Below are positions 4,501-35,136 of a DNA stretch of 35,136 nt, in pieces. The DNA comes from Bacteroidales bacterium. Lineage in GTDB: Bacteria > Bacteroidota > Bacteroidia > Bacteroidales > UBA3824. The stretch spans positions 1-35,136 of the forward strand of contig JAGCNK010000172.1 in the NCBI GenBank assembly GCA_017645985.1. The letters are read 5' to 3'. A model generated the notes under the pieces. It searched no databases. It was not told the origin of the DNA and worked only from the letters and a program-made list of their open reading frames with translations. The position numbers were made by a program, and so were the translations under genes. Each line of letters opens with the position of its first letter. The first letter of the stretch is position 1.

Positions 4501-5928
4501 GGAACGTTTGAGCGTGGCAAGGTCGATTTTTACCAACGCAATTTTGTCGTCCTTGGCTTGTTCGGTGTAGCCTTTGAGCGCAAGATTCAGAAAATAATCT
4601 GCCGAAGTATGGTTGCTGCGTGTTAGGTAAACCTTGCCCAAGGCGTAGTAACCATCTGCCAGAGCGGGATGTTTAGGATTTCCCTTTATATAGTCGATTG
4701 ATTTTTGTATGTATTTCACCGCCTTGTCGTGATCCGCAAGGTACATGTATTCTTGTCCCACAAAGAAGTATCCTGCTACCAGATAGTATTTGTTGTCCAT
4801 TCGTTTGGAGCAGCCGAGTACGGCCGTTCCACATTCGAGAGCCTCTTTGTGATACCCGAGCCAAGAAAGGGCTAGGTACTTGGCCTGTAAGGATGTGGCG
4901 CGGTATTCCCAAACGACTTGCGACGAGCGGCAATACGCCAGGGCGTTCCAAGTTTTATCAGCCAGTTGCACAGCCTCGGGCATCGATGTTTTCTGTACAG
5001 CCTCTATAGTCTTATTTATCAGTTCGTTAGGGTTGCCTTTTTGGGTTTCCTTGATGGCTGTGTAGCGGTATTTGTGATTTGCAACAGGCTTTGTCACAAC
5101 GTTTTGCAAATGACGTGCGTTTGAATAGAAATCCAGATTAACAATTATCCATCCGTTGTCGATTTGTTTGATGTCGCCGTTTTGCAGCATATAGTTGAGC
5201 AGTCCGTTCATAAACGCAGGATTTCCCTGTGTGGCTGAATGGATTATGTTGGCGGTGTCTGACGGAAACTCGTTGCCTGGAAACATTGTGGATATCAGGT
5301 CGGCTGTGTCGGAGAGTTTCAGCGGTTCGGGAACGAGCTCGCAAAATCCTCCCGTCTTCCATGCCTGGGTGATGCTGCCTATTTTTATAGGAAAGAGGTC
5401 GCGCGAAATGCGGTTGATAAGCGGGTCTGACTTGATAGCCGGGTCTGCCATATTGTACGCCGCCACAGCCATAATATTGCAAGGTCCATCCACAATATGC
5501 TGAGCCAGAGCGTATATCATACTGTAAATGTCGGGATTGCAGTATTGAAAATCGTCGGCAATGATTATTGTAGGATTCTTAGCCGCGCTCTCTTGCAGAT
5601 ATTTGTAGAAAAAGTCAGCTGCTTCGTCGGGCGTCAGATTGGCTAAGCTGTCGCGTTGCTCTTTGTCCGGCTTATGTCCGGTGAGGGTATGGAAAAGCAT
5701 ACTATACGACAACTCTGTGCTGGCACAACGGCAATTGAACGAAATGGTGCTGCACTTAGATATGGCGGCGGCTTTCTGGGCAAACATTCTTGCCAGAGCC
5801 GACTTGCCGCATCCGGGCTTGCCGCTTATGAGCACAATCTGCCCTTTGCCGTTGCAAACCTGCTCGTAGAGGTTTAGCAGACGGTGCAGTTCTGTGCCGT
5901 GTCCTACAAATATATCTTCCGCTATCAA
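1519..5928 (-). CDS. STAND-type P-loop NTPase (AAA_16-like) with very long TPR array and no recognisable effector domain
   Basis: Walker A GKPGCGKS is at 5800-5823 and Walker B-like IIIADDFQY follows. FVGHGTELHRLL and GNPAFMNGLL motifs are typical of AAA_16/MalT-like STAND modules. More than 20 TPR-like 34-aa units follow (A..YNNIG..Y......A..YY..AL). The start is ambiguous: TTG at 5928 overlaps the upstream stop as TTGA, while the tracked TTG at 6006 would overlap the kinase gene by 82 nt. No in-frame ATG precedes the Walker A. Confidence 0.8.
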   Translation of the reverse strand: MIAEDIFVGHGTELHRLLNLYEQVCNGKGQIVLISGKPGCGKSALARMFAQKAAAISKCSTISFNCRCASTELSYSMLFHTLTGHKPDKEQRDSLANLTPDEAADFFYKYLQESAAKNPTIIIADDFQYCNPDIYSMIYALAQHIVDGPCNIMAVAAYNMADPAIKSDPLINRISRDLFPIKIGSITQAWKTGGFCELVPEPLKLSDTADLISTMFPGNEFPSDTANIIHSATQGNPAFMNGLLNYMLQNGDIKQIDNGWIIVNLDFYSNARHLQNVVTKPVANHKYRYTAIKETQKGNPNELINKTIEAVQKTSMPEAVQLADKTWNALAYCRSSQVVWEYRATSLQAKYLALSWLGYHKEALECGTAVLGCSKRMDNKYYLVAGYFFVGQEYMYLADHDKAVKYIQKSIDYIKGNPKHPALADGYYALGKVYLTRSNHTSADYFLNLALKGYTEQAKDDKIALVKIDLATLKRSDKDNAGAYQLLNEVIDYCTKAVKPHILAKAYINLGLSYDNDSRFAEAKRYYTEALRLCFHTGDRINLANCYNNMGLSKNAQSKYTEALTYFHKALEIDRMLGNTAKISISYNNIGLALLNSGDENGAEKYFNAALENDSNAPNKYGIAVTYSNLGALYSQKSETDTALRYYKLALKEDHANNDIAGMIADYNAIGNLHYGSDNIQGAMQYFNKSLELSQQSNDEAGRAAVYNNIGNIFYSKQDYERASQYYLEALKINNKLNDNAAAALNYSNLASVYEEQKKTARAETYYDNAIELYHKVKYKAQEAYNLTSLATLYYRSDRFNKAKVTYLLAAKIYKNIGDTKEYIRSLSFAGDTMRMLCEYKEAQKALDEAIELSRNLGDLHSEALATGTLACMYAEMPDAPRASEYYKRAIELYRSDNDLDMFAEMLSALAYLYNENGDTDEALICQHQVIETYRLTGNTEQLAAAYAETGLFYENGNYEKSAENYILSAQHYQVADRPGRQADALIHAADALMHTQNRDQGYECLTSAVDILQTMKKEHGDEVSETDINDKLVQAFTAIADYFFENKDYLVAVANYTTALDISSKTEAHTRTAYICNNIGYTYDTFGIYTRALEYYNKACEEYDKEEFKSEGLFNNLKNVALMHERLGNNLRAAEYYRKAFDTFENEFHIEISSLADCALSAATAIFGINGDIETANKYYHKAYSLFKKDDNHTGIIKTLLSRAVSNAIVKRYDEATSLASQIMHVFDISSDIDTKCTALRATAQINIKLGKLDEAVKKYQQALDLLFARDLWDAAAQLYYNMATQFAENCGKMAATIDFNGKTLTMYDFISKLLSNTVDLAKTEKDTDLEIQAIVSQARYNISCDEKDLALGYLRRAVDTAAATGSAHTEASVLLEKADILMRFYKDFNTSALSIDRAIVMLKSTNGDKSLLSYAYALKFVQLVYQNQIDEAKVVYQNYAPHFYGYFDTIPMLRNAVNEFSTYLGLQ

Positions 5929-8213
5929 CTCTTTTTCTTTAAGAAACCGGCTAACACTTTCATCAGCAGACTGATGTTGAGCGGTTTGGTAAGGTAGTAG
6001 TTGCAACCGGCCTTGATGGTCTTATCTTTTTCGTCGCTGAGGGCGTAGGCGGTTTGTGCAATTATTATGATGTCTTTGTCGAACTCACGTATGGCGCGAG
6101 TGGCTTCGTAGCCGTCCATTACGGGCATCTTGATGTCCATAAGTATCAGGTCGATGTCTTTGTTGTTGCGTGCTATCTCCACGGCCTGACCTCCGTCTTC
6201 AGCCCAGATGATTTCTGCGCCGGTTTCGGCTAGTATCTCGTTCATTAGCATGCGGTTCATCTCCTCGTCTTCTGCCACCATTATCTTTTTGCCTTTGAGC
6301 GAAACTTCGGCTTCGTCGGCATTGCCAGATGCTCCGTATTCGTCGGCGGTGTTGAGCTCGGGGTCGTAGGGTAGGGTGAAGTAGAACGTGCTGCCTTCGC
6401 CTTCGGCTGATTCTACCCACATTTTGCCGCCGAGCAGCTCTACAAGTTTCTTAGAGATGGCTAGACCGAGTCCTGTGCCTTGTTGGTTCTTGTCGCCTTT
6501 TTGTTCTATCTGTCCAAAACGTTCAAAGATAACATTCAGCTTGTCCTGAGGCATTCCCTGTCCAGTGTCCTTAACGTAGAACAGCAGCTCTTCGGGAGTG
6601 TTGAAACGGTATCCAAATTCGATGAAGCCCTTTTCGGTGAATTTCATAGCGTTGGTTATCAGGTTGTTGATAACCTGTTTGAAACGGAACGGGTCGGTTT
6701 CGATTTGAAATTCGTCGGATTCTACCGCATTTTTAACGGTAAAGCCGATTCCCTTTTCTTTGATGTTGTTGATTTGATATTGCGAAATATAGATTTCGTT
6801 CATCATTGGGTTGAGGGGCGACTTGCGTGGCTTAACCTTCAATTGCCCTGCCTCTATTTTGGATATGTCGATGATGTCGTTGATGAGGTTGAGCAGGCTC
6901 TTGCCGCTGCTTACAATGAGCTCCAGGTATTTTGCTTTTGTGCCTGTAAGTCCGCTTGTCTTTGCCAGAAGTTCCGAGAAACCTATGATTGAGTTCATCG
7001 GGGTGCGTATCTCGTGACTCATATTGGCAAGGAACGCCGATTTAAGTTTGTCAGATTCCTCGGCTTTTTGTTTAGCCTCAATAAGTTCTGATTCCCACTG
7101 TTTGCGTTTGGTGATGTCGCGGATGGTGAGTGCGCATCCTTTTGCGGTGTCGGTATCGTAATACGACACGGTCATGTCGGCAATGAATGTTTCGCCGTTT
7201 TTATTTACGCAAACGCCCTCAAACGGTGCTTCGGTATATTTGCACGAACCTGTTTCGAGGAATTTCTTAACCTCTGCCTCGGCATTAGCACGGCGGCTTT
7301 GTTCGGGCTGGAGCAGGTTGAGCAATGGCATACCTTGTACTTCGTCGTTGTGGAAACCAGTGAGTTTTTCGGCAGCGGGGTTGAGCGATACCACTTTGGC
7401 TTTTTCGTCGGTTACGATAAGCGCCTCAAACGCATTCATACTCAGCTTGGTGTAAATCTCGTTGGTGGCTTTTTCCTGCAAAACGGCTTTCTGACGTTCA
7501 GATTCGGTCTTGGCTATTATCTGGGTCATCTTTTCAAACTCGTTGTAGAGGTCTGCCACTTCGTCTTTGTTTTTGGGAATGTCAACGTCCTGAGTGTAGT
7601 TGCCCGAGTCGTTGGCTTGTTTGATATGCTCGGTGAGCTTGAGAATCGGTTTCGACAGCGGACGGGCTATGAAATACGATACAAGCAGAGTTATCAACGC
7701 AGTGATGGCGGCTATGAATACGAACATCGACGCCGAGTAGCGCATCTTGCGGCTCGACAGTTCGGCTGTTGAAATTTCCAAATATACCGCACCCAGAATG
7801 TCGGAGTCGCGGATAACGGGCTTGGTTATGATGAGGTAGCCGTCTTCGAAACGTGCTGAGCTTTTGGGTTCCAAGGTTGGCGGCGGAGTAAAGTCTTTGG
7901 CGTTGTTGAACGTGTGACTGTAAAACTGCTGCTGGTCGGTGGAGTAGAACTGCACAAACTCAATAGGCGGAAACACTTCGAAAAATTCGCAGCGCTCTTT
8001 GAGGTCTTGTGGTTGGTTCATCTCAATACAAGATGTGCCTTCGATGGCAAGCATTTTGGCTATGCCTTCGTACTTGTTTTGAAAGTCTTCGGTGTTGGCG
8101 GTGCTAAGTATTGCATTGCTGCAAATATAGCACAACGCTGCTGTGATAAGCACTGCACAAGCCACACTGAAAGTGATTTTGTGCTTTATCGATAGGTTGG
8201 CAAAAGGATTCAT
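5925..8213 (-). CDS. Hybrid sensor histidine kinase/response regulator (TM - periplasmic domain - TM - HAMP - PAS - HisKA - HATPase_c - REC)
   Basis: ATG at 8213. H-box is SHEIRTPMNSIIGF, with the phospho-His codon at 7014-7016. N, G1 and G2 boxes are NLITNAMKF, KDTGQGM and GTGLGLAISK. The C-terminal receiver has AEDEE ... DLILMDIKMP, with its Asp codon at 6135-6137, then TKP. Two TM segments flank a ~120-aa periplasmic stretch (about 7737-8105). Confidence 0.92.
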   Translation of the reverse strand: MNPFANLSIKHKITFSVACAVLITAALCYICSNAILSTANTEDFQNKYEGIAKMLAIEGTSCIEMNQPQDLKERCEFFEVFPPIEFVQFYSTDQQQFYSHTFNNAKDFTPPPTLEPKSSARFEDGYLIITKPVIRDSDILGAVYLEISTAELSSRKMRYSASMFVFIAAITALITLLVSYFIARPLSKPILKLTEHIKQANDSGNYTQDVDIPKNKDEVADLYNEFEKMTQIIAKTESERQKAVLQEKATNEIYTKLSMNAFEALIVTDEKAKVVSLNPAAEKLTGFHNDEVQGMPLLNLLQPEQSRRANAEAEVKKFLETGSCKYTEAPFEGVCVNKNGETFIADMTVSYYDTDTAKGCALTIRDITKRKQWESELIEAKQKAEESDKLKSAFLANMSHEIRTPMNSIIGFSELLAKTSGLTGTKAKYLELIVSSGKSLLNLINDIIDISKIEAGQLKVKPRKSPLNPMMNEIYISQYQINNIKEKGIGFTVKNAVESDEFQIETDPFRFKQVINNLITNAMKFTEKGFIEFGYRFNTPEELLFYVKDTGQGMPQDKLNVIFERFGQIEQKGDKNQQGTGLGLAISKKLVELLGGKMWVESAEGEGSTFYFTLPYDPELNTADEYGASGNADEAEVSLKGKKIMVAEDEEMNRMLMNEILAETGAEIIWAEDGGQAVEIARNNKDIDLILMDIKMPVMDGYEATRAIREFDKDIIIIAQTAYALSDEKDKTIKAGCNYYLTKPLNISLLMKVLAGFLKKKS

Positions 8214-8244: not shown

Positions 8245-8760
8245 TTATTCTTTGTATTGATGACCCGGACTCAGCAGTGTGGTTCTGAACATAAGCCCTG
8301 AATCTATAATTGCTTCTTTTTTAAATAGATAGTCGATGCTGCTCGCCTTTTGTTCTATAAAGAACATACAGCCGTAATTTAATAAATTTTTATTGTTTGA
8401 CAGCGTAAGAATCTTCATTTTTTTTAGTTTTTCCTCTAATAATTCGTTTGATATTTCAGCAGAATGGTCGATGAACACCACTAATGCGTCGTCGATGGCC
8501 GTGTTGTCGTTGTATTCTCTTACGGTGATAGGTTTGTTGTTGAATGTCTGCGATTTAAGCGAGTTTGAGATTTCGGTAAAAGGTTCTGGTTTCTTGGCTG
8601 CTATATATATTATAAAGGTGTCCTGCGGCAGAGGTTCTGGCCAGTACACATAGTGGGCAAATTTGATTATGTTCTGGTAGTCGAATCCCTGCGCCGTGGC
8701 TGATGTGCTCAGGAGCAGGGCGTATGCGGTAAAGATTATATATGTTAGTAGTTTTTTCAT
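8245..8760 (-). CDS. YfiR/DUF4154-like periplasmic protein
   Basis: A signal peptide (MKKLLTYIIFTAYALLLSTSATAQ) is present. The layout is collinear with YfiR as I recall it: IIKFAHYVYWPE, then a short beta-alpha segment, ILTLSNN...YGCMFFI, and a C-terminal ...GLMFRTTLL. The start ATG overlaps the upstream stop as ATGA (8757-8760). Confidence 0.6.
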   Translation of the reverse strand: MKKLLTYIIFTAYALLLSTSATAQGFDYQNIIKFAHYVYWPEPLPQDTFIIYIAAKKPEPFTEISNSLKSQTFNNKPITVREYNDNTAIDDALVVFIDHSAEISNELLEEKLKKMKILTLSNNKNLLNYGCMFFIEQKASSIDYLFKKEAIIDSGLMFRTTLLSPGHQYKE

Positions 8761-21921: not shown

Positions 21922-22025
21922 ATATTTCGACTTATCCTGCCTTTTGCCCGAAAAAAAAGGGAAAAACGTATACGCCGTTTCGCAAAAAAAGCGTATATTT
22001 AAACGTCATTTTTTTACGCGAAACG

Positions 22026-23954
22026 ATGGGCAAAAAAAAGAAACGAGAGTCGATAGTCTTGAATATGATGAAGGTGCTGATACCAGTTACCATAGTTCTG
22101 GTGGCTGGTGTCAACACTTTGCTTTTTCTTATAATCCGCAGCAACAACAAGCAGCTGCTCAATAAGGCTATGGACGAGATTGTCTCTAACAATGTGTCGC
22201 AGATTTCTCAGCAGTTTGAGAATATCGTGTCACAATTGGAGATGCTCTCGGAGTTTCGCACCAGCCAGCATATCGGCGACACCGTGAGTTTCAGTATGAT
22301 ACAAATGCTTGTCAACAACAGCAACGGCGTGTTCCGTTACTGCGGTTTCACCAATGCCGACGGTTATACTGTTACCACGCTGTCTGATTCTATGCATTCG
22401 TTGAAACCTCCCGAGGGACTTCTCAGCTTTATTGCGAGCCAGCGTTTTTATGTGTCGGACCGTCTGCCTGCTCTCGACGGCAAGGACGACATTATCTATA
22501 TCCACGTGCCCACCATCAAGGATGACAAGATGATTGGAATCATTTCGGCGGCGGTGGACGCAAAAAAGGTGGAGGATATGGCTTGTGAGCAGAAGGTTAT
22601 GGGCACAGGTTTCGGTATGGTGGTCAACAGCCGCTCCACATCGGTTCAGATGTGTACCGAGCATCCCGAATGGATCAACAATTTCAAACTTACCGACAGC
22701 TCTGATTATAAGGGATTTGATATGATTGCCAACGCAATAGTCTCCGACATTGATTTTGTGGAGCCAATGGATATCGAGACCCCCGACCACGAGCGTTACG
22801 CCATTATCTGGAAAAAAATAGGATTTACCGACTGGCACTATGTATATGCCACTCCCGTGTCATCATTGAAGGCTCGCAACAGTCTGCTTATCAAACTCTT
22901 CATTCTGTTTGTGCCGGCGTCGTGCATCATATTTATCGTGGTGCTGCTGTGGCTTGTGTCGTCGCACATCAATCGTCCGCTGCATCAGCTGTTGAAGGCT
23001 GTGGCTTGTTTCTGGACGGGCAAACTGTACAAGGTGCAGGATTTCAAGGCGCAACGCAACGACGAGCTTGGACAGATATTGAAGTCTACCACCGATATGT
23101 CGCTCAAACTTGAAACTGTGACCCAGAGCATTCGCCAGAAGGCGTCGCAGATAGTGTCCGACAGCCGTATGCTCAACGATTCGGCTGAGCACATTTCGCA
23201 GTCGGTATCAAGACAGGCCACCGCTGCCGACGAGATTTCGGCGGTGCTGAGCTATATGCTCGATATTATTTCGCGAAACACCTCGTATGCGCTTGAAACT
23301 CATCAGATAAGCACCGATGTGGTAGAAAATCTCAACACAGTGTCGCAGGTGTCGCAAAAGTCGCTCGAAAGCACATTGCAGATTTCCGAAAAAATCCGTG
23401 TTATCAACGAGATAGCATCCAAAACCGACCTTCTTGCCATCAACGCCGCAGTGGAGGCCGCCAAGGCGGGCGACGAAGGAAAGGGTTTCGCAGTGGTGGC
23501 AGGAGAAATCAAAAAACTCGCCGAGCGATGCCGTGCAGCAGCCATCCAAATCGACGATGCCATTGCTGATGATGTCAAGCTGTCGGAAAAAGCCGCCAAA
23601 CTGTTTGCCAAGCTCGTTCCCGTTATCAATCAGACCAACGAGAAGGTGTCGTTGATAGTGGAGTCTGCCAAGGAGCAGGAGTACAGCTCGCAACAGATTT
23701 CAAAATCTATCAAGCAGCTTGCCGAAATTGCGACCAACAATGCCTCTGCCGCCGCCGAGATGGTAAAACAGGCCGAAATGTTCACCAAATACGCCGCCGG
23801 ACTTGTGGAGGATGTCACATTCTTCAAAACCAGAGACACCGACCGTACCGAGATGCTCAAACGTCAGCTCGAGGAACATGAAAACGAACTTTATCGCGTT
23901 AAGATGGTGCTTGAGTCGCAGATGCACGGCAATAATGAAAAAGAGAGTAAGTAG
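22026..23954 (+). CDS. Methyl-accepting chemotaxis-type receptor (TM - Cache-like - TM - HAMP - MCP signalling domain)
   Basis: The highly conserved MCP hairpin tip [36 protein letters not shown] lies at 23424-23531. TM segments are at about aa 15-37 and 290-312. The periplasmic domain contains [23 protein letters not shown]. Confidence 0.87.
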
Positions 23955-23974
23955 AATATTATAATATAGTTACT

Positions 23975-26107
23975 ATGGCTAAATACAAGCAGAGTTTTCT
24001 AAGTAGATTCATAGCCTCGCACGGGCACAGCCTGTGGAGCAAGCTCGTGTTGATTACCGTTCCCATCGTGGCGGCTATCATCATCGGGTCCGACATATTT
24101 ATCTATAACTATCTATATGACGCTTCGCACCAGACCATCAACAACCTCGGTTTGCAGACGCTTGACATTCAGAGCAAGAATATCTCAAACTATCTCAATG
24201 CCTACGTTCACGACCTGAGGCTTTTAAGTAGCCTGTATTCCAAAAATTACGATTCGCAACGTCTTTTGCATTCGGCAACACGCCTTGTGGAAGACAACCC
24301 CGATAAGTATCTATACATCCGTCTGGCTACTCCCGACGGTATGCAGTACACCACCAACAGCGGCGTCGACACTATTGGCGACCCTATGCAGCGCGATTAT
24401 TTTAGAAAACTTTCTATTCCAAACAACAACGAGGTGTTCGCTATGCCAAAGCAGTTTAAGGGCGACAGCGCAGTGTTCAACGTGGCTGTGCCTGTGCGCG
24501 ACGACAACGGACGCACTCTCGCCGTGCTTACAGCCGTATTCGACAACGACACCATCAACTCGTATATCTCTAATATGAAGATCAACGGTCTGGGAATGGG
24601 TGCTATGGTAGACGAGAACACAACCCTGATAGCCTATCCCCGACAGAAATATATCAACGCTTTGGATTTCCGTTCGGCCTCTGATAAGGGATACCGCGGA
24701 TTGGGCAACTTCCTTACAAGCATTGTTACCGACAAGCGTGTTTCGGGCATTGCCACTTGCTTAAACGACTCGTCGCACCAGGTGGAGATTTATTATCACC
24801 GTGTGGACAATACCGACTGGACTCTCGGTATCATTGTGGAGAAGGATTTGCTCTATGTGGCTGACTGGCATATGCTTGTGCTGCTTGTCACCACAGGATT
24901 TGTCACTATTTTGCTGTTCTGTATTCTGCTGTGGCAGGTGATTCGTTTTATTGTGGGTCCGATACGCTCGGTAAACACTCTTGCTCAGGATATTGCGCAG
25001 GGGCGGCTCTATTCTACCGCCGCCGACCATATAGCCAATGTCGACGAGCTTGGCGACCTTGCCCGAAATGTAAAGAATATGAAGGAACGCCTCCGCAATG
25101 CCGTGCAGACTATACGTAAATATTCGTTGGAGACAGCGCAGAGCGGCAAGTCGCTTTCCGACATTGTGGCGCAGCTGTCCGACGATACTCAGAATCAGGC
25201 TTCGGCGGTAGATGATATTTCGTCGGCGCTTGAAAACATGGCGTCGCTTATCGAGCGCAACAATGCCAACGCAAAAATGACCTGCGAGTCGTCTGACAGC
25301 ATTGCCGAAGATGTGCTTACCATTACCAAGGCGTCGGCAAGCACTCTGGCTTGTATCCAAAATGTGATTTCCAAGGCTAAGATTATCAACGAGATAACCT
25401 CACGAACCGACCTTCTCGCCATCAACGCAGCTGTGGAGGCTGCAAGAGCGGGCGTTCACGGCAAGGGTTTTGCCGTGGTGGCTTCCGAAATCCGTAAGCT
25501 TGCCGAGCACTGCCAGGAGGTGTCGATCCAAATCAACGAGTCAAGTGCGCGAAGCCTCAAAATCACCGAACGTTCGTCAGACCTTGTTGACAAGATTACT
25601 CCCCGTATCCGCAAGAATGCAGCTATGGTGTCGGAGATTGCCGCATCGTGCAACGAACAGCTCGACCGCACATTGGCTATCAATCACGCCGTGCAGCAGC
25701 TGGTGGACATCACGCAGTCTAACTCTCGTTCGTCGGAGGCTATGCTGCGCAATTCGGATGATATGATCACGCTGTGGCGCAGTCTCAACGAGTCGGTGGA
25801 ATTTTTCAAGCTTACCGGCACGGAAACTACCGATCCCGTAAAACTACAGAACCTTATCGAGGAGCATACCACCGAAATACTGAAACTTAAATCGCAACTT
25901 GTGGAATGTCTTGAAGAACAGGGCGCAGCCTTGGGCAGCATTGCGCCTTTGGCGGCACAGATAGAAAAAGCTGACAAAGCCGAACTTCAGGACAGTGAGA
26001 CAAAAGCAACCCCCCGTATGCCAAAGGAGCAGCATCATCCCGGATTCAATATCAGACTCGAAGATGAAAATAAGAGTTTGGACGACAGTTATGAGAATTT
26101 TGAATAG
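23975..26107 (+). CDS. Methyl-accepting chemotaxis-type receptor (TM - dCache-like - TM - HAMP - MCP signalling domain), paralog of 22026..23954
   Basis: The hairpin tip [36 protein letters not shown] lies at 25406-25513. dCache-like strings include [24 protein letters not shown] and [16 protein letters not shown]. It starts 20 nt after the preceding receptor gene. Confidence 0.87.
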
Positions 26108-33934: not shown

Positions 33935-35136
33935 TTATACAATCTCAATACCTAGAACGGTGATGTCGTCGCGCTGGTCGCAGTCGCCTTTGAAAGTGTT
34001 GAGGTCGTTGAGAATGTAGTTCTTCTGCTGGTCGATGTCCATCGTTACAGAATCCTTGATGGCGTCCAAAAGACGTTTGATTGTGTAACGTTTGCGCTCG
34101 TAGTTGTTCTGGTCGCCGATACCGTCGGAAGTCATATATATACGGTCGCCCTTGAACAGCTCCTCCGACTTGTCGGTGAATGTTACCGACGACTCCCTGT
34201 TGCGGAACTTGCCGCCGATACCCTTGCGCGATGTTTTCATAGTGATGATTTCGCCGGTCTGCGAGTTGTAGCGGTGCACGGGGAATTTGGCGCCCTCGTA
34301 GGTCAGGCGGGTCTTTCCGTCAGAAAACTTTTCTATCTTGCAGAATATTGCCTCCATACCGTCGTCGTTGTCGGTCTCCTCCTGACGGAGCATCTTGCGC
34401 ACGTTGCGGTTGAGCTCGTCTAAGATTTCGGCGGGTGAATGTATGAACTGCTGTTTGATAATCTGGTCTAAGAGGTTGATGCCGATAAGGCTCATAAACG
34501 CGCCGGGAACACCGTGACCTGTGCAGTCGATAACGCTGATGAATGTTACCTCGCGCTCGTCGTACTTGATGGTGTGGAAATAGTAGAAGTCGCCGCTCAC
34601 GATATCTTTGGGCATGTAAATCACAAATGTTTTAAACACTTTGTCCATGTCGGAGGTGGTGGGCAACATGGCAGACTGTATAGTTTGAGCGTAACGAATA
34701 CTACCGAGAGTGTTTTCCTTGCTGCGGCGTAGAGCCTCGTTGATCTGGCTGAGGTAGACCGACTGGCTTTCAAGCTCCTCTTTCTGGGCGAGAATCTCGG
34801 CGGTCTGTTCGCAGAGTATCGTGTTCTGCTTTTTGTTGTTGGCGTACAGCCTCATAATTATAATACTGAGAATCAATGCGCCAGCCAGCATTATTACTAT
34901 AAGGAGTATGATATTGTGCTGTGTGGAAATTCGCGATGTCATAATCTTGACATTGGCGTCTTGTTTTAGCAGCTTTTCGTCAAGCTCTTTTGAACTGTTG
35001 AGCTGCTTGTAAAGTCCATAGGCGTTTGTAGAGTCGATAGGAATAGTAGTAAGCCTGATTTCACGAGGCACAGATTCACCGTTGAGAATCTTGATGGCAG
35101 TTTCAATAGCTTCGTCGCTACCGTTGGGGTAGAGGA
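33935..35136 (-). CDS. Membrane-bound PP2C-family (SpoIIE/RsbU-type) serine phosphatase with periplasmic sensor domain (5' end outside the window)
   Basis: The frame stays open upstream of the tracked GTG start (35071) to the window edge (...LYPNGSDEAIETAIKILNGES-VPREI...). One TM lies at about 34847-34915, followed by a coiled coil. PP2C motifs are SGDFYYF, IDCTGHGVPGAFMS, DGMEAIFC, MTSDGIGDQ and DDITVLGIEI. Stop TAA is at 33935-33937. Confidence 0.85.
   Translation of the reverse strand, partial: LYPNGSDEAIETAIKILNGESVPREIRLTTIPIDSTNAYGLYKQLNSSKELDEKLLKQDANVKIMTSRISTQHNIILLIVIMLAGALILSIIIMRLYANNKKQNTILCEQTAEILAQKEELESQSVYLSQINEALRRSKENTLGSIRYAQTIQSAMLPTTSDMDKVFKTFVIYMPKDIVSGDFYYFHTIKYDEREVTFISVIDCTGHGVPGAFMSLIGINLLDQIIKQQFIHSPAEILDELNRNVRKMLRQEETDNDDGMEAIFCKIEKFSDGKTRLTYEGAKFPVHRYNSQTGEIITMKTSRKGIGGKFRNRESSVTFTDKSEELFKGDRIYMTSDGIGDQNNYERKRYTIKRLLDAIKDSVTMDIDQQKNYILNDLNTFKGDCDQRDDITVLGIEIV

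Follow-up and report, generated by a model that had tools for sequence, protein, structure and literature searches.

Tandem 34H-type chemoreceptor genes in a rumen Bacteroidales genome and the chemosensory pathway encoded elsewhere in it

We analyzed two tandem genes, mcp-1 and mcp-2, at 22026-26107 of a 35,136-nucleotide contig (JAGCNK010000172.1, hereafter the window) from a metagenome-assembled genome (MAG) of a Bacteroidales bacterium (GCA_017645985.1). Their products, P0001 and P0002, are methyl-accepting chemotaxis proteins (MCPs). We estimate a probability of about 0.8 that they are genuine, ordinary chemotaxis receptors of a known family with partners encoded on other contigs, because CheA, CheW, CheR, CheB, CheD and CheY are all encoded elsewhere in the same genome. 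Both open reading frames were found where an earlier note, made from the window sequence, had placed tandem MCP-type receptors. Both products match the Pfam family MCPsignal (PF00015) far above the gathering cut-off of 34.6 bits, with 93.9 bits for P0001 (E=1.4e-26) and 82.0 bits for P0002 (E=6e-23).

The window itself encodes no CheA, CheW, CheR, CheB or stand-alone CheY, in agreement with the earlier note, and its sole receiver (REC) domain forms the C-terminus of a hybrid histidine kinase (5925-8213). On another contig of the genome, C11, a Pfam-confirmed cluster was found with the order cheY-cheA-cheW-cheR-HK*-cheD-cheB-REC (cluster 1), together with a gene for a transmembrane (TM)-GAF-3xPAS protein. 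The cluster-1 CheA has the domain order Hpt-dimerisation-HATPase-CheW. HK*, encoded between cheR and cheD (C11:9531-10436), has an intact ATPase domain and an H-box, FISNITNEIINPF, with Asn at the position of the phospho-acceptor His. A second cheA-cheW pair followed by an MCP gene is located on contig C201 (cluster 2), where another MCP gene lies in convergent orientation, and a third CheW is encoded on contig C116. The source genome has at least 12 MCP genes. In a sister genome, a STAS gene precedes cluster 1, and genes for a REC-PAS-HisKA_3 kinase and a REC-REC protein precede cluster 2. CheA was found in all 24 sister species, in two copies in 23 of them and in one copy in the remaining species, and genomes of the genus encode 7-22 MCPs, whose sensors fall into no fewer than three or four folds.

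The earlier note had offered two explanations for receptors without che genes nearby, namely a chemosensory pathway elsewhere in the genome or a non-canonical partner of the hairpin tips, and had said that a complete che cluster elsewhere would make these ordinary chemoreceptors. The two CheA-CheW pairs, the third CheW and the CheR, CheB, CheD and CheY genes bear out the first explanation. It is very unlikely that the tips instead bind a non-canonical partner in an organism without CheA and CheW. Such a partner would suit both the absence of che genes from the window and the variant pre-tip of P0001 and P0002, S[RK]TDLLAIN in place of AFQTNILALN. However, the CheA-CheW pairs and the third CheW occur in essentially every sister species, the variant tip is common to the MCP encoded directly after cheA2-cheW2, and ordinary alphaproteobacterial MCPs adjoining cheA also have TDLLA-type tips. 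The accompanying view that well-studied Bacteroidales lack Che pathways applies to Bacteroides- and Prevotella-type families and not to the order, since CheA is present in about 15 of 36 other sampled families. Genomes of two Bacteroidales families, G025 (99% complete) and G059 (74% complete), have 2 and 8 MCP genes, respectively, and no detected CheA dimerisation domain, so that G025 may hold true orphan receptors.

The source MAG comprises 2.03 Mb in 233 contigs, with 61.8% completeness and 1.9% estimated contamination, and contigs C11 and C201 are short, which raises the question of whether they are binning contaminants and the window receptors relics without partners. However, the same two clusters are found in 23 of 24 sister species. 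In the sister genome G005, which is 99% complete, they are located on contigs of 403 kb and 486 kb among housekeeping genes, with DnaK, an H+-PPase, a histidine-biosynthesis enzyme and a peptidase S46 encoded nearby. Among named genomes, the nearest CheA (80% identity) is a Bacteroidales protein, and both receptor genes are intact, conserved and apparently transcribed. Because the clusters recur in sister species, on long contigs with housekeeping genes, contamination is not credible.

P0001 (642 residues) and P0002 (710 residues) share the arrangement of a sensor between two TM helices, a HAMP region and a signalling hairpin (Table 1). For P0002, Pfam also detected dCache_1 (E=3.2e-21, 76.4 bits against a cut-off of 45) and HAMP (E=5.6e-08). 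The dCache_1 score of P0001 is 29.7 bits, under the 45-bit Pfam cut-off, and we regard its sensor as a probable dCache. No HAMP was called by Pfam in P0001, in which NCBIfam matches to Tar/Tcp-type receptors begin at residue 285-302; NCBIfam aligns both proteins, from TM2 through the bundle end, to Tar/Tsr/Tcp-type receptors. Because mcp-1 and mcp-2 are separated by only 20 nucleotides, they are probably co-transcribed; the gene 3' of mcp-2 is convergent.

The two hairpin tips are exactly at the positions at which the earlier note had recognized canonical MCP tips, and they share 27-30 of 50 residues with the tip of Tsr. An alignment of P0002 with Tsr (6s1k, class 36H) showed that each arm lacks exactly 7 residues, with the two gaps placed symmetrically around the tip. 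In both P0001 and P0002, 118 residues separate the tip from the K of the FFK bundle end, compared with 125 in Tsr. Nearly this distance was found in all MCPs of the source genome with a complete C-terminus. Based on the single 7-residue gap per arm and the 118-residue distance, the alignments assign P0001, P0002 and all of these MCPs to class 34H.

The 34H receptors are a minor class that has been assigned to the F8 chemosensory system, and Pseudomonas syringae has one 34H receptor; among its receptors, a C-terminal pentapeptide is found in this one alone, matched by the CheR of the F8 cluster (PMC11253619, PMC7184735). We scanned named genomes with an alignment of CheA and compared the MCPs encoded beside the closest homologues, which came from Pseudomonas, Xanthomonas, Shewanella, Rhizobium/Agrobacterium, Alkaliflexus and Saccharicrinis. 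All of these MCPs are of class 34H, with FF[TRKN] at tip+118, a long linker and an aromatic terminal peptide (EFTRF, QFASF, EFVRF, NYEKF or EYENF; the Rhizobium peptide, DFRQSA, has extra residues after the aromatic pair). The likeness extends to described F8 receptors, namely PSPTO_0912 of P. syringae (cluster II) and the F8 receptor of Methylomicrobium alcaliphilum, which share with the window receptors two TM helices and a 34-heptad bundle ending in FF[KTR] at tip+118. P0002 also resembles them in its long flexible linker and terminal aromatic peptide, and the closest CheAs outside Bacteroidota adjoin such receptors. P0001 differs in having no tether, and P0002 in one extra residue after its aromatic peptide. 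In Pseudomonas, one cluster-encoded 34H receptor coexists with an F6 system that is flagellar and has about 40 receptors, whereas here all 7-22 receptors are 34H and mostly scattered, no flagellum is present, and the cluster has an additional STAS protein and a His-less kinase. An F class would imply a flagellated host, and neither FlhA (0 of 61 related genomes, of which 44 are at least 90% complete and 40 have CheA; positive controls matched) nor flagellin (none in the source genome) was found. Judged by the 34H receptors and the CheA-neighbouring MCPs, the pathway is therefore called F8-like and not a confirmed F8 member.

Compared with Tsr and Tar of Escherichia coli (36H, with an NWETF tether), the window receptors have the same TM-sensor-TM-HAMP-hairpin plan, a similar tip and a bundle end (FFKL) resembling VFRI, and P0002 also ends in a linker and an aromatic peptide. 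They differ in having one heptad less per arm, a dCache instead of a four-helix-bundle sensor and an additional conserved helix with a His residue; moreover, Glx (Glu or Gln) pairs are absent from P0001 and P0002 at most of the Tsr methylation positions.

The earlier note had described a shared V[ET]FFK motif followed by an extra coiled coil beyond the signalling bundle. The motif is present as VTFFK in P0001 and VEFFKL in P0002, each followed by a conserved helix. However, all complete MCP C-termini of the source genome have a bundle end of the form FFK, YFK, YFN or [IV]FK at the same distance from the tip, and VEFFKL aligns with VAVFRI of Tsr, of which VFRI is the counterpart. By these comparisons FFK is a generic bundle end and not a special motif. 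Nor is there a long coiled coil, since the helix has about 25 residues and P0002 adds only a linker and a peptide. The helix begins about 10 residues past FFK and has the 80% consensus L...IE.H...IL.LK..L in 10 orthologues. Its His residue (..IEEH..EIL.LK..L) is invariant in 16 sequences, from the window and from orthologues, that include both receptor types; a more distant cluster-2 MCP has Ile at this position. We also considered a relationship with the coiled-coil tails of the GAF receptors encoded at 8757-13412, and rejected it, as those are generic K/E-rich coils without EEH..EIL.LK.

A terminal motif, H.PGF...L......LD..Y..[FY], was found only in P0002-type proteins. The orthologues end in YENFE, YEEYK or YVDY and the more distant ones in EYDTF, EYEEF or EYDSF, and two paralogues end in DYERF and DFERF after Pro/Gln-rich linkers. 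The terminal motif is bipartite, with a hydrophobic patch (PGF.I.L, GTFINL, KGF.LDM or IGDLINL) located 10-15 residues upstream of an acidic x-[YF]-x-x-F; this arrangement is common to 34H receptors of Bacteroidota and of Rhizobium/Agrobacterium (L041, L046, L074, L101). We know of no description of such an extended bipartite tether. MCPs with C-terminal pentapeptides have already been reported to be abundant in Bacteroidetes (PMC7390727). The CheR encoded in cluster 1 most resembles the CheR of Salmonella (1BC5), which binds the pentapeptide, and the two align without a gap in the beta-subdomain loop. These similarities suggest that the terminal peptide of P0002 is a putative tether for CheR/CheB. 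A homologue search with the tail alone (residues 600-710), aimed at occurrences outside MCPs, found only two close orthologues, the tail being too variable for word seeding.

The receptors differ in the pre-tip region. The Tsr-like pre-tip IAFQTNILALNAA is present in nine receptors, and ..[SG][RK]TDLLA[IV]NAA is present in P0001, P0002 and the MCP directly after cheA2-cheW2, the same three that bear the post-bundle helix. The cluster-2 MCP of a sister genome also has the variant tip (C201_4273 and L032 agree). It is possible, though we propose it only tentatively, that P0001 and P0002 signal mainly through CheA2/CheW2. Cluster 2 has no CheR/CheB of its own, and such a preference would fit the reduced methylation sites of the pair. 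We searched the columns of the five Tsr methylation sites for the context [ASTG][ASTG]xx[EQ][EQ]xx[ASTG][ASTG]. The paralogues mostly keep 3-4 canonical Glx pairs, and the P0002-type proteins keep one canonical site, ASAVEEISSA.

Some details count against classical adaptation, against tethering or against the link to CheA2/CheW2. The link between the variant tip and CheA2/CheW2 is limited to the genus. At the retained site, P0002 of the window reads DD (25211-25216, GAT GAT), whereas its closest orthologue, L006, has GAA GAA and six orthologues have EE. P0001-type proteins have D-E at site 2 and A-E at the C-arm site, and nothing more. P0002 ends in SYENF-E, with one residue beyond the aromatic peptide, and the loop of the cluster-1 CheR is without the glycines of Salmonella CheR. 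Because of these last two points tethering is unproven, and because few methylation sites are left and P0002 has DD, classical adaptation of the pair is uncertain. The DD is invariant across assemblies from three independent metagenome studies; P0002 combines, somewhat oddly, a species-specific loss of the methyl-accepting Glu with a CheR/CheB-type tether, which may serve neighbouring receptors of the array. As a general marker of cluster-2 receptors the variant tip was discarded, since it is absent from the cluster-2-type MCP of G053, which belongs to another family, and it is a genus-level lead only.

A PDB sequence search with the two sensor domains gave weak matches (E about 0.1 and 0.008), and therefore a fold search was used. 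An AlphaFold2 model of the P0002 sensor, based on nine sequences, had a double-Cache fold with a per-residue confidence (pLDDT) of 78 and a predicted template-modelling score (pTM) of 0.80. The best PDB matches in Foldseek were PctA/PctB/PctC, CtaA and Mlp37/Mlp24, with E about 1e-10, template-modelling scores of 0.6-0.72 and 10-19% identity. By its Pfam score and its modelled fold, the P0002 sensor is a dCache_1 domain, a double PDC/Cache flanked by the two TM helices. It shares the predicted fold and a DP..R.[WY][YF] stretch with these amino-acid chemoreceptors, but at such low identity the relationship is barely detected by sequence. Of what we take to be the amino-acid-binding motif, R and D are kept in P0002, while Tyr is replaced by Gly, Trp by Tyr and Tyr by Phe. 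Because the motif is kept only in part, the ligand of P0002 cannot be predicted.

In the mechanism that we propose, a small periplasmic ligand would bind the double-Cache sensor of each receptor, and the signal would reach the hairpin tip by way of TM2 and HAMP. The tip would dock ordinary CheW and CheA, whose genes lie elsewhere in the genome, and set the autophosphorylation rate of CheA and hence the level of CheY~P. For adaptation, the receptors would depend on the CheR, CheB and CheD that cluster 1 encodes. The flexible linker and terminal aromatic peptide of P0002 are of the kind that tethers CheR/CheB, and P0001, which has no tether and fewer methylation sites, probably relies for this reason on its neighbours in the array. 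We infer the physical coupling of the receptors to CheA/CheW, the function of the tether and the output of the pathway. Che pathways in flagellum-less, gliding-type Bacteroidales are visible in databases; the literature that we searched contained nothing specific on Che systems of Marinilabiliales or of Bacteroidales from the rumen.

We consider the output of the pathway to be non-flagellar. The FlhA and flagellin searches described above confirm that the lineage is non-flagellated, as the earlier note had supposed from well-studied Bacteroidales. That note had named gliding or type IV pili (T4P) as possible outputs. The T2SSF/PilC platform protein, common to T4P, Tad, type II secretion systems and archaella, was found in 0 of 25 genomes of the genus, with one sub-threshold match, which excludes T4P for the genus; gliding is left as a candidate, as GldM, GldJ, GldB and GldD are present. 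The source genome is incomplete enough for flagella or T4P to have been missed, in which case P0001 and P0002 would be plain swimming or twitching receptors. However, the FlhA search included 44 genomes of at least 90% completeness, and together with the T2SSF and flagellin results it makes such an oversight highly improbable.

Control of the gliding machinery that a type IX secretion system (T9SS) drives is the most likely option for the output, although we favour it with less than even confidence. Of the genes in the 11-gene gliding criterion of T9GPred (bioRxiv 10.1101/2023.03.31.535141), we searched for four, GldM, GldJ, GldB and GldD. GldM, the T9SS motor protein, was found in 12 of 12 genomes tested, GldJ was full-length across the genus, and GldB and GldD were also present in the genus. 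Among 36 other families, CheA was found only in GldJ-positive ones (15 with both, 14 with GldJ only, none with CheA only and 7 with neither; Fisher one-sided p=0.014, uncorrected, including for phylogeny). The cultured Alkaliflexus imshenetskii, which is documented as gliding (PMC3228490), has the cluster MCP-STAS-CheY-Hpt-CheA-CheW-CheW-CheR-HK*.

Against gliding as the output stand the following points. The GldJ scores of the genus, 427-451 bits, are just under the NCBIfam equivalog cut-off of 458, and the presence of GldJ does not prove gliding because GldJ is also needed for T9SS secretion. GldB and GldD had to be rejected as gliding-specific markers, since they are also found in GldJ-negative, CheA-negative families and do not discriminate. 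The association of CheA with GldJ is weaker (p=0.064) when a single fragmentary genome is counted as absent. No gld or spr gene adjoins any che cluster examined. The genus is uncultured, and, to our knowledge, no Che system of Bacteroidota has been tied to an output by experiment.

Alternatively, these canonical Che proteins may serve an output other than motility, such as a response by partner switching or transcription, secretion by the T9SS, or traits of the envelope or of biofilms. Candidate intermediaries encoded in the clusters are the STAS protein, the kinase without the His, the additional receivers and the GAF/PAS proteins, and we consider such an output a possible but somewhat doubtful alternative. 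The parts of the clusters do suggest other outputs: the STAS protein, the HisKA/HATPase protein with Asn for His, the extra REC and the TM-GAF-3xPAS protein of cluster 1, and the REC-PAS-HisKA_3 kinase and REC-REC protein of cluster 2. Furthermore, neither the F8 nor the ancestral F7 systems of proteobacteria act as simple controllers of flagella (PMC11253619). No motility gene adjoins either cluster, and a SpoIIE phosphatase is encoded in the window. Che pathways with outputs outside motility are usually served by one or two dedicated receptors, and gradient navigation typically goes with a large and varied repertoire of TM receptors, full adaptation enzymes and a single-domain CheY, a set not typical of regulatory Che pathways with a single input. 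With 7-22 TM MCPs per genome, diverse periplasmic sensors, CheR/CheB/CheD and a single-domain CheY, the genus bears the signature of gradient navigation, which argues against an output outside motility. A more detailed proposal is that a true chemotaxis system steers T9SS gliding, with CheY~P or the double receiver of cluster 2 acting on GldL/GldJ and the window pair forming a receptor subclass dedicated to CheA2/CheW2. In this full form we regard it as unlikely; the variant tip, the post-bundle helix with its invariant His and the reduced methylation sites may be the marks of such a subclass.

Two known systems offer partial precedents for a Che pathway acting on gliding. In Porphyromonas gingivalis, the CheY-like receiver of PorX binds the T9SS motor protein PorL (PMC5005315), docking on the cytoplasmic tail of the motor, which is the contact that a CheY-to-gliding output would need. 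PorX differs, however, in being a REC-PglZ protein phosphorylated by PorY and not by CheA. The Frz system of Myxococcus xanthus is a precedent for MCP-CheA-CheW-CheY control of surface gliding without flagella, and the REC-REC protein of cluster 2 is like FrzZ. In contrast to the many TM receptors here, Frz has one cytoplasmic receptor, FrzCD, and acts on cell polarity with the unrelated Agl-Glt and T4P machinery. The sole candidate motor here is T9SS/Gld, and no homology of output is implied.

As two more 34H dCache chemoreceptors of a known family, P0001 and P0002 are of interest for their setting and output. A Bacteroidales genus that is abundant in the rumen has retained two CheA sets and 7-22 receptors without flagella or T4P, and the same pathway is found in cultured gliders. 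A role in steering gliding would account for the way in which fibre-degrading Bacteroidales of the rumen reach plant particles or metabolites. The T9SS motor would then also have a sensory input open to testing, and a molecular route leading from chemical sensing to gliding would be available for the first time in Bacteroidota. The receptors offer concrete handles, since their sensor domains could be expressed to screen for ligands and the terminal peptide could be used in binding tests with CheR/CheB.

The Bacteroidota-like context recognized in the earlier note agrees with the nearest relatives, which are rumen Bacteroidales MAGs. One syntenic contig of a yak-rumen Bacteroidales MAG encodes a PriA with 93% identity and a receptor with 86% identity, and the further relatives are Bacteroidales MAGs from the rumen or hindgut. 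The mcp locus is near-identical in bovine gut metagenomes of several independent studies. Short metatranscriptome contigs from two studies span variable parts of both genes with 98-100% identity, and mcp-1 and mcp-2 therefore appear to be transcribed in vivo in the rumen, with the reservation that DNA carry-over is possible in such libraries. Synteny of the tandem pair extends to L006, L008, L009 and L010. P0001-type and P0002-type receptors form one clade with 99% support in the Shimodaira-Hasegawa-like approximate likelihood ratio test, which points to an old tandem duplication. A distant relative, whose receptors are about 35% identical, has three tandem receptors of the subfamily instead of two (L012:1573-8136), suggesting that the array has been expanded at least twice.

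Table 1. Features of the mcp-1/mcp-2 region (positions in the window)
Feature	Position	Strand	Remarks
Candidate Bacteroidetes-type -7 promoter box	21994-22001	+	TATATTTA; 25 nucleotides 5' of the mcp-1 start codon; read from the sequence; weak, one mismatch
mcp-1 (P0001, 642 residues)	22026-23954	+	chemoreceptor gene
P0001 TM1	22065-22136	+
P0001 dCache-like sensor	22152-22844	+
P0001 TM2	22884-22958	+
P0001 HAMP-like region	22959-23132	+
P0001 Pfam MCPsignal match	23310-23771	+	within the 34H hairpin
P0001 hairpin tip	23424-23531	+	variant pre-tip; region for docking of CheA/CheW; 30 of 50 residues as in the Tsr tip
P0001 bundle end	23814-23828	+	VTFFK
P0001 post-bundle helix	23850-23921	+	protein ends soon after, no terminal tether
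mcp-2 (P0002, 710 residues)	23975-26107	+	chemoreceptor gene
P0002 TM1	24044-24106	+
P0002 dCache_1 sensor	24122-24832	+
P0002 TM2	24872-24943	+
P0002 HAMP	24938-25096	+
P0002 methylation-site-2 equivalent	25199-25228	+	orthologues read ASAV-EE-ISSA
P0002 Pfam MCPsignal match	25280-25762	+	within the 34H hairpin
P0002 hairpin tip	25406-25513	+	variant pre-tip
P0002 bundle end	25796-25813	+	VEFFKL
P0002 post-bundle helix	25835-25921	+	conserved
P0002 flexible linker	25922-26035	+	variable, acidic/Ser/Pro-rich; length and sequence vary among orthologues
P0002 C-terminal motif	26036-26104	+	conserved; aromatic x-Y-x-x-F one residue from the C-terminus, PGF.I.L patch before it

The candidate -7 box upstream of mcp-1 was read against TAnnTTTG, which we take to be the Bacteroidetes consensus. 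In one metatranscriptome contig, one base is missing at position 22001, in a T/A run overlapping the box, which is either a length polymorphism or a homopolymer sequencing error.

Components of partner-switching systems are found near Che genes. A STAS protein is encoded directly upstream of cheY in a sister genome, with a DUF6272 protein nearby (L031:7053-7682 and 9392-9730), and a SpoIIE/PP2C phosphatase is encoded at the end of the window (33935-35134). About 5 kb upstream of the receptors, the window encodes a 713-residue protein with a PD40 beta-propeller and an OmpA domain (14820-16961), which is PorE-like or CHU_0125-like. A bona fide PorE was rejected, as the protein scores 270 bits against a cut-off of 600, and its CHU_0125-like score of 261 bits is also under the cut-off. 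It may be a paralogue with a role in T9SS or in outer-membrane integrity.

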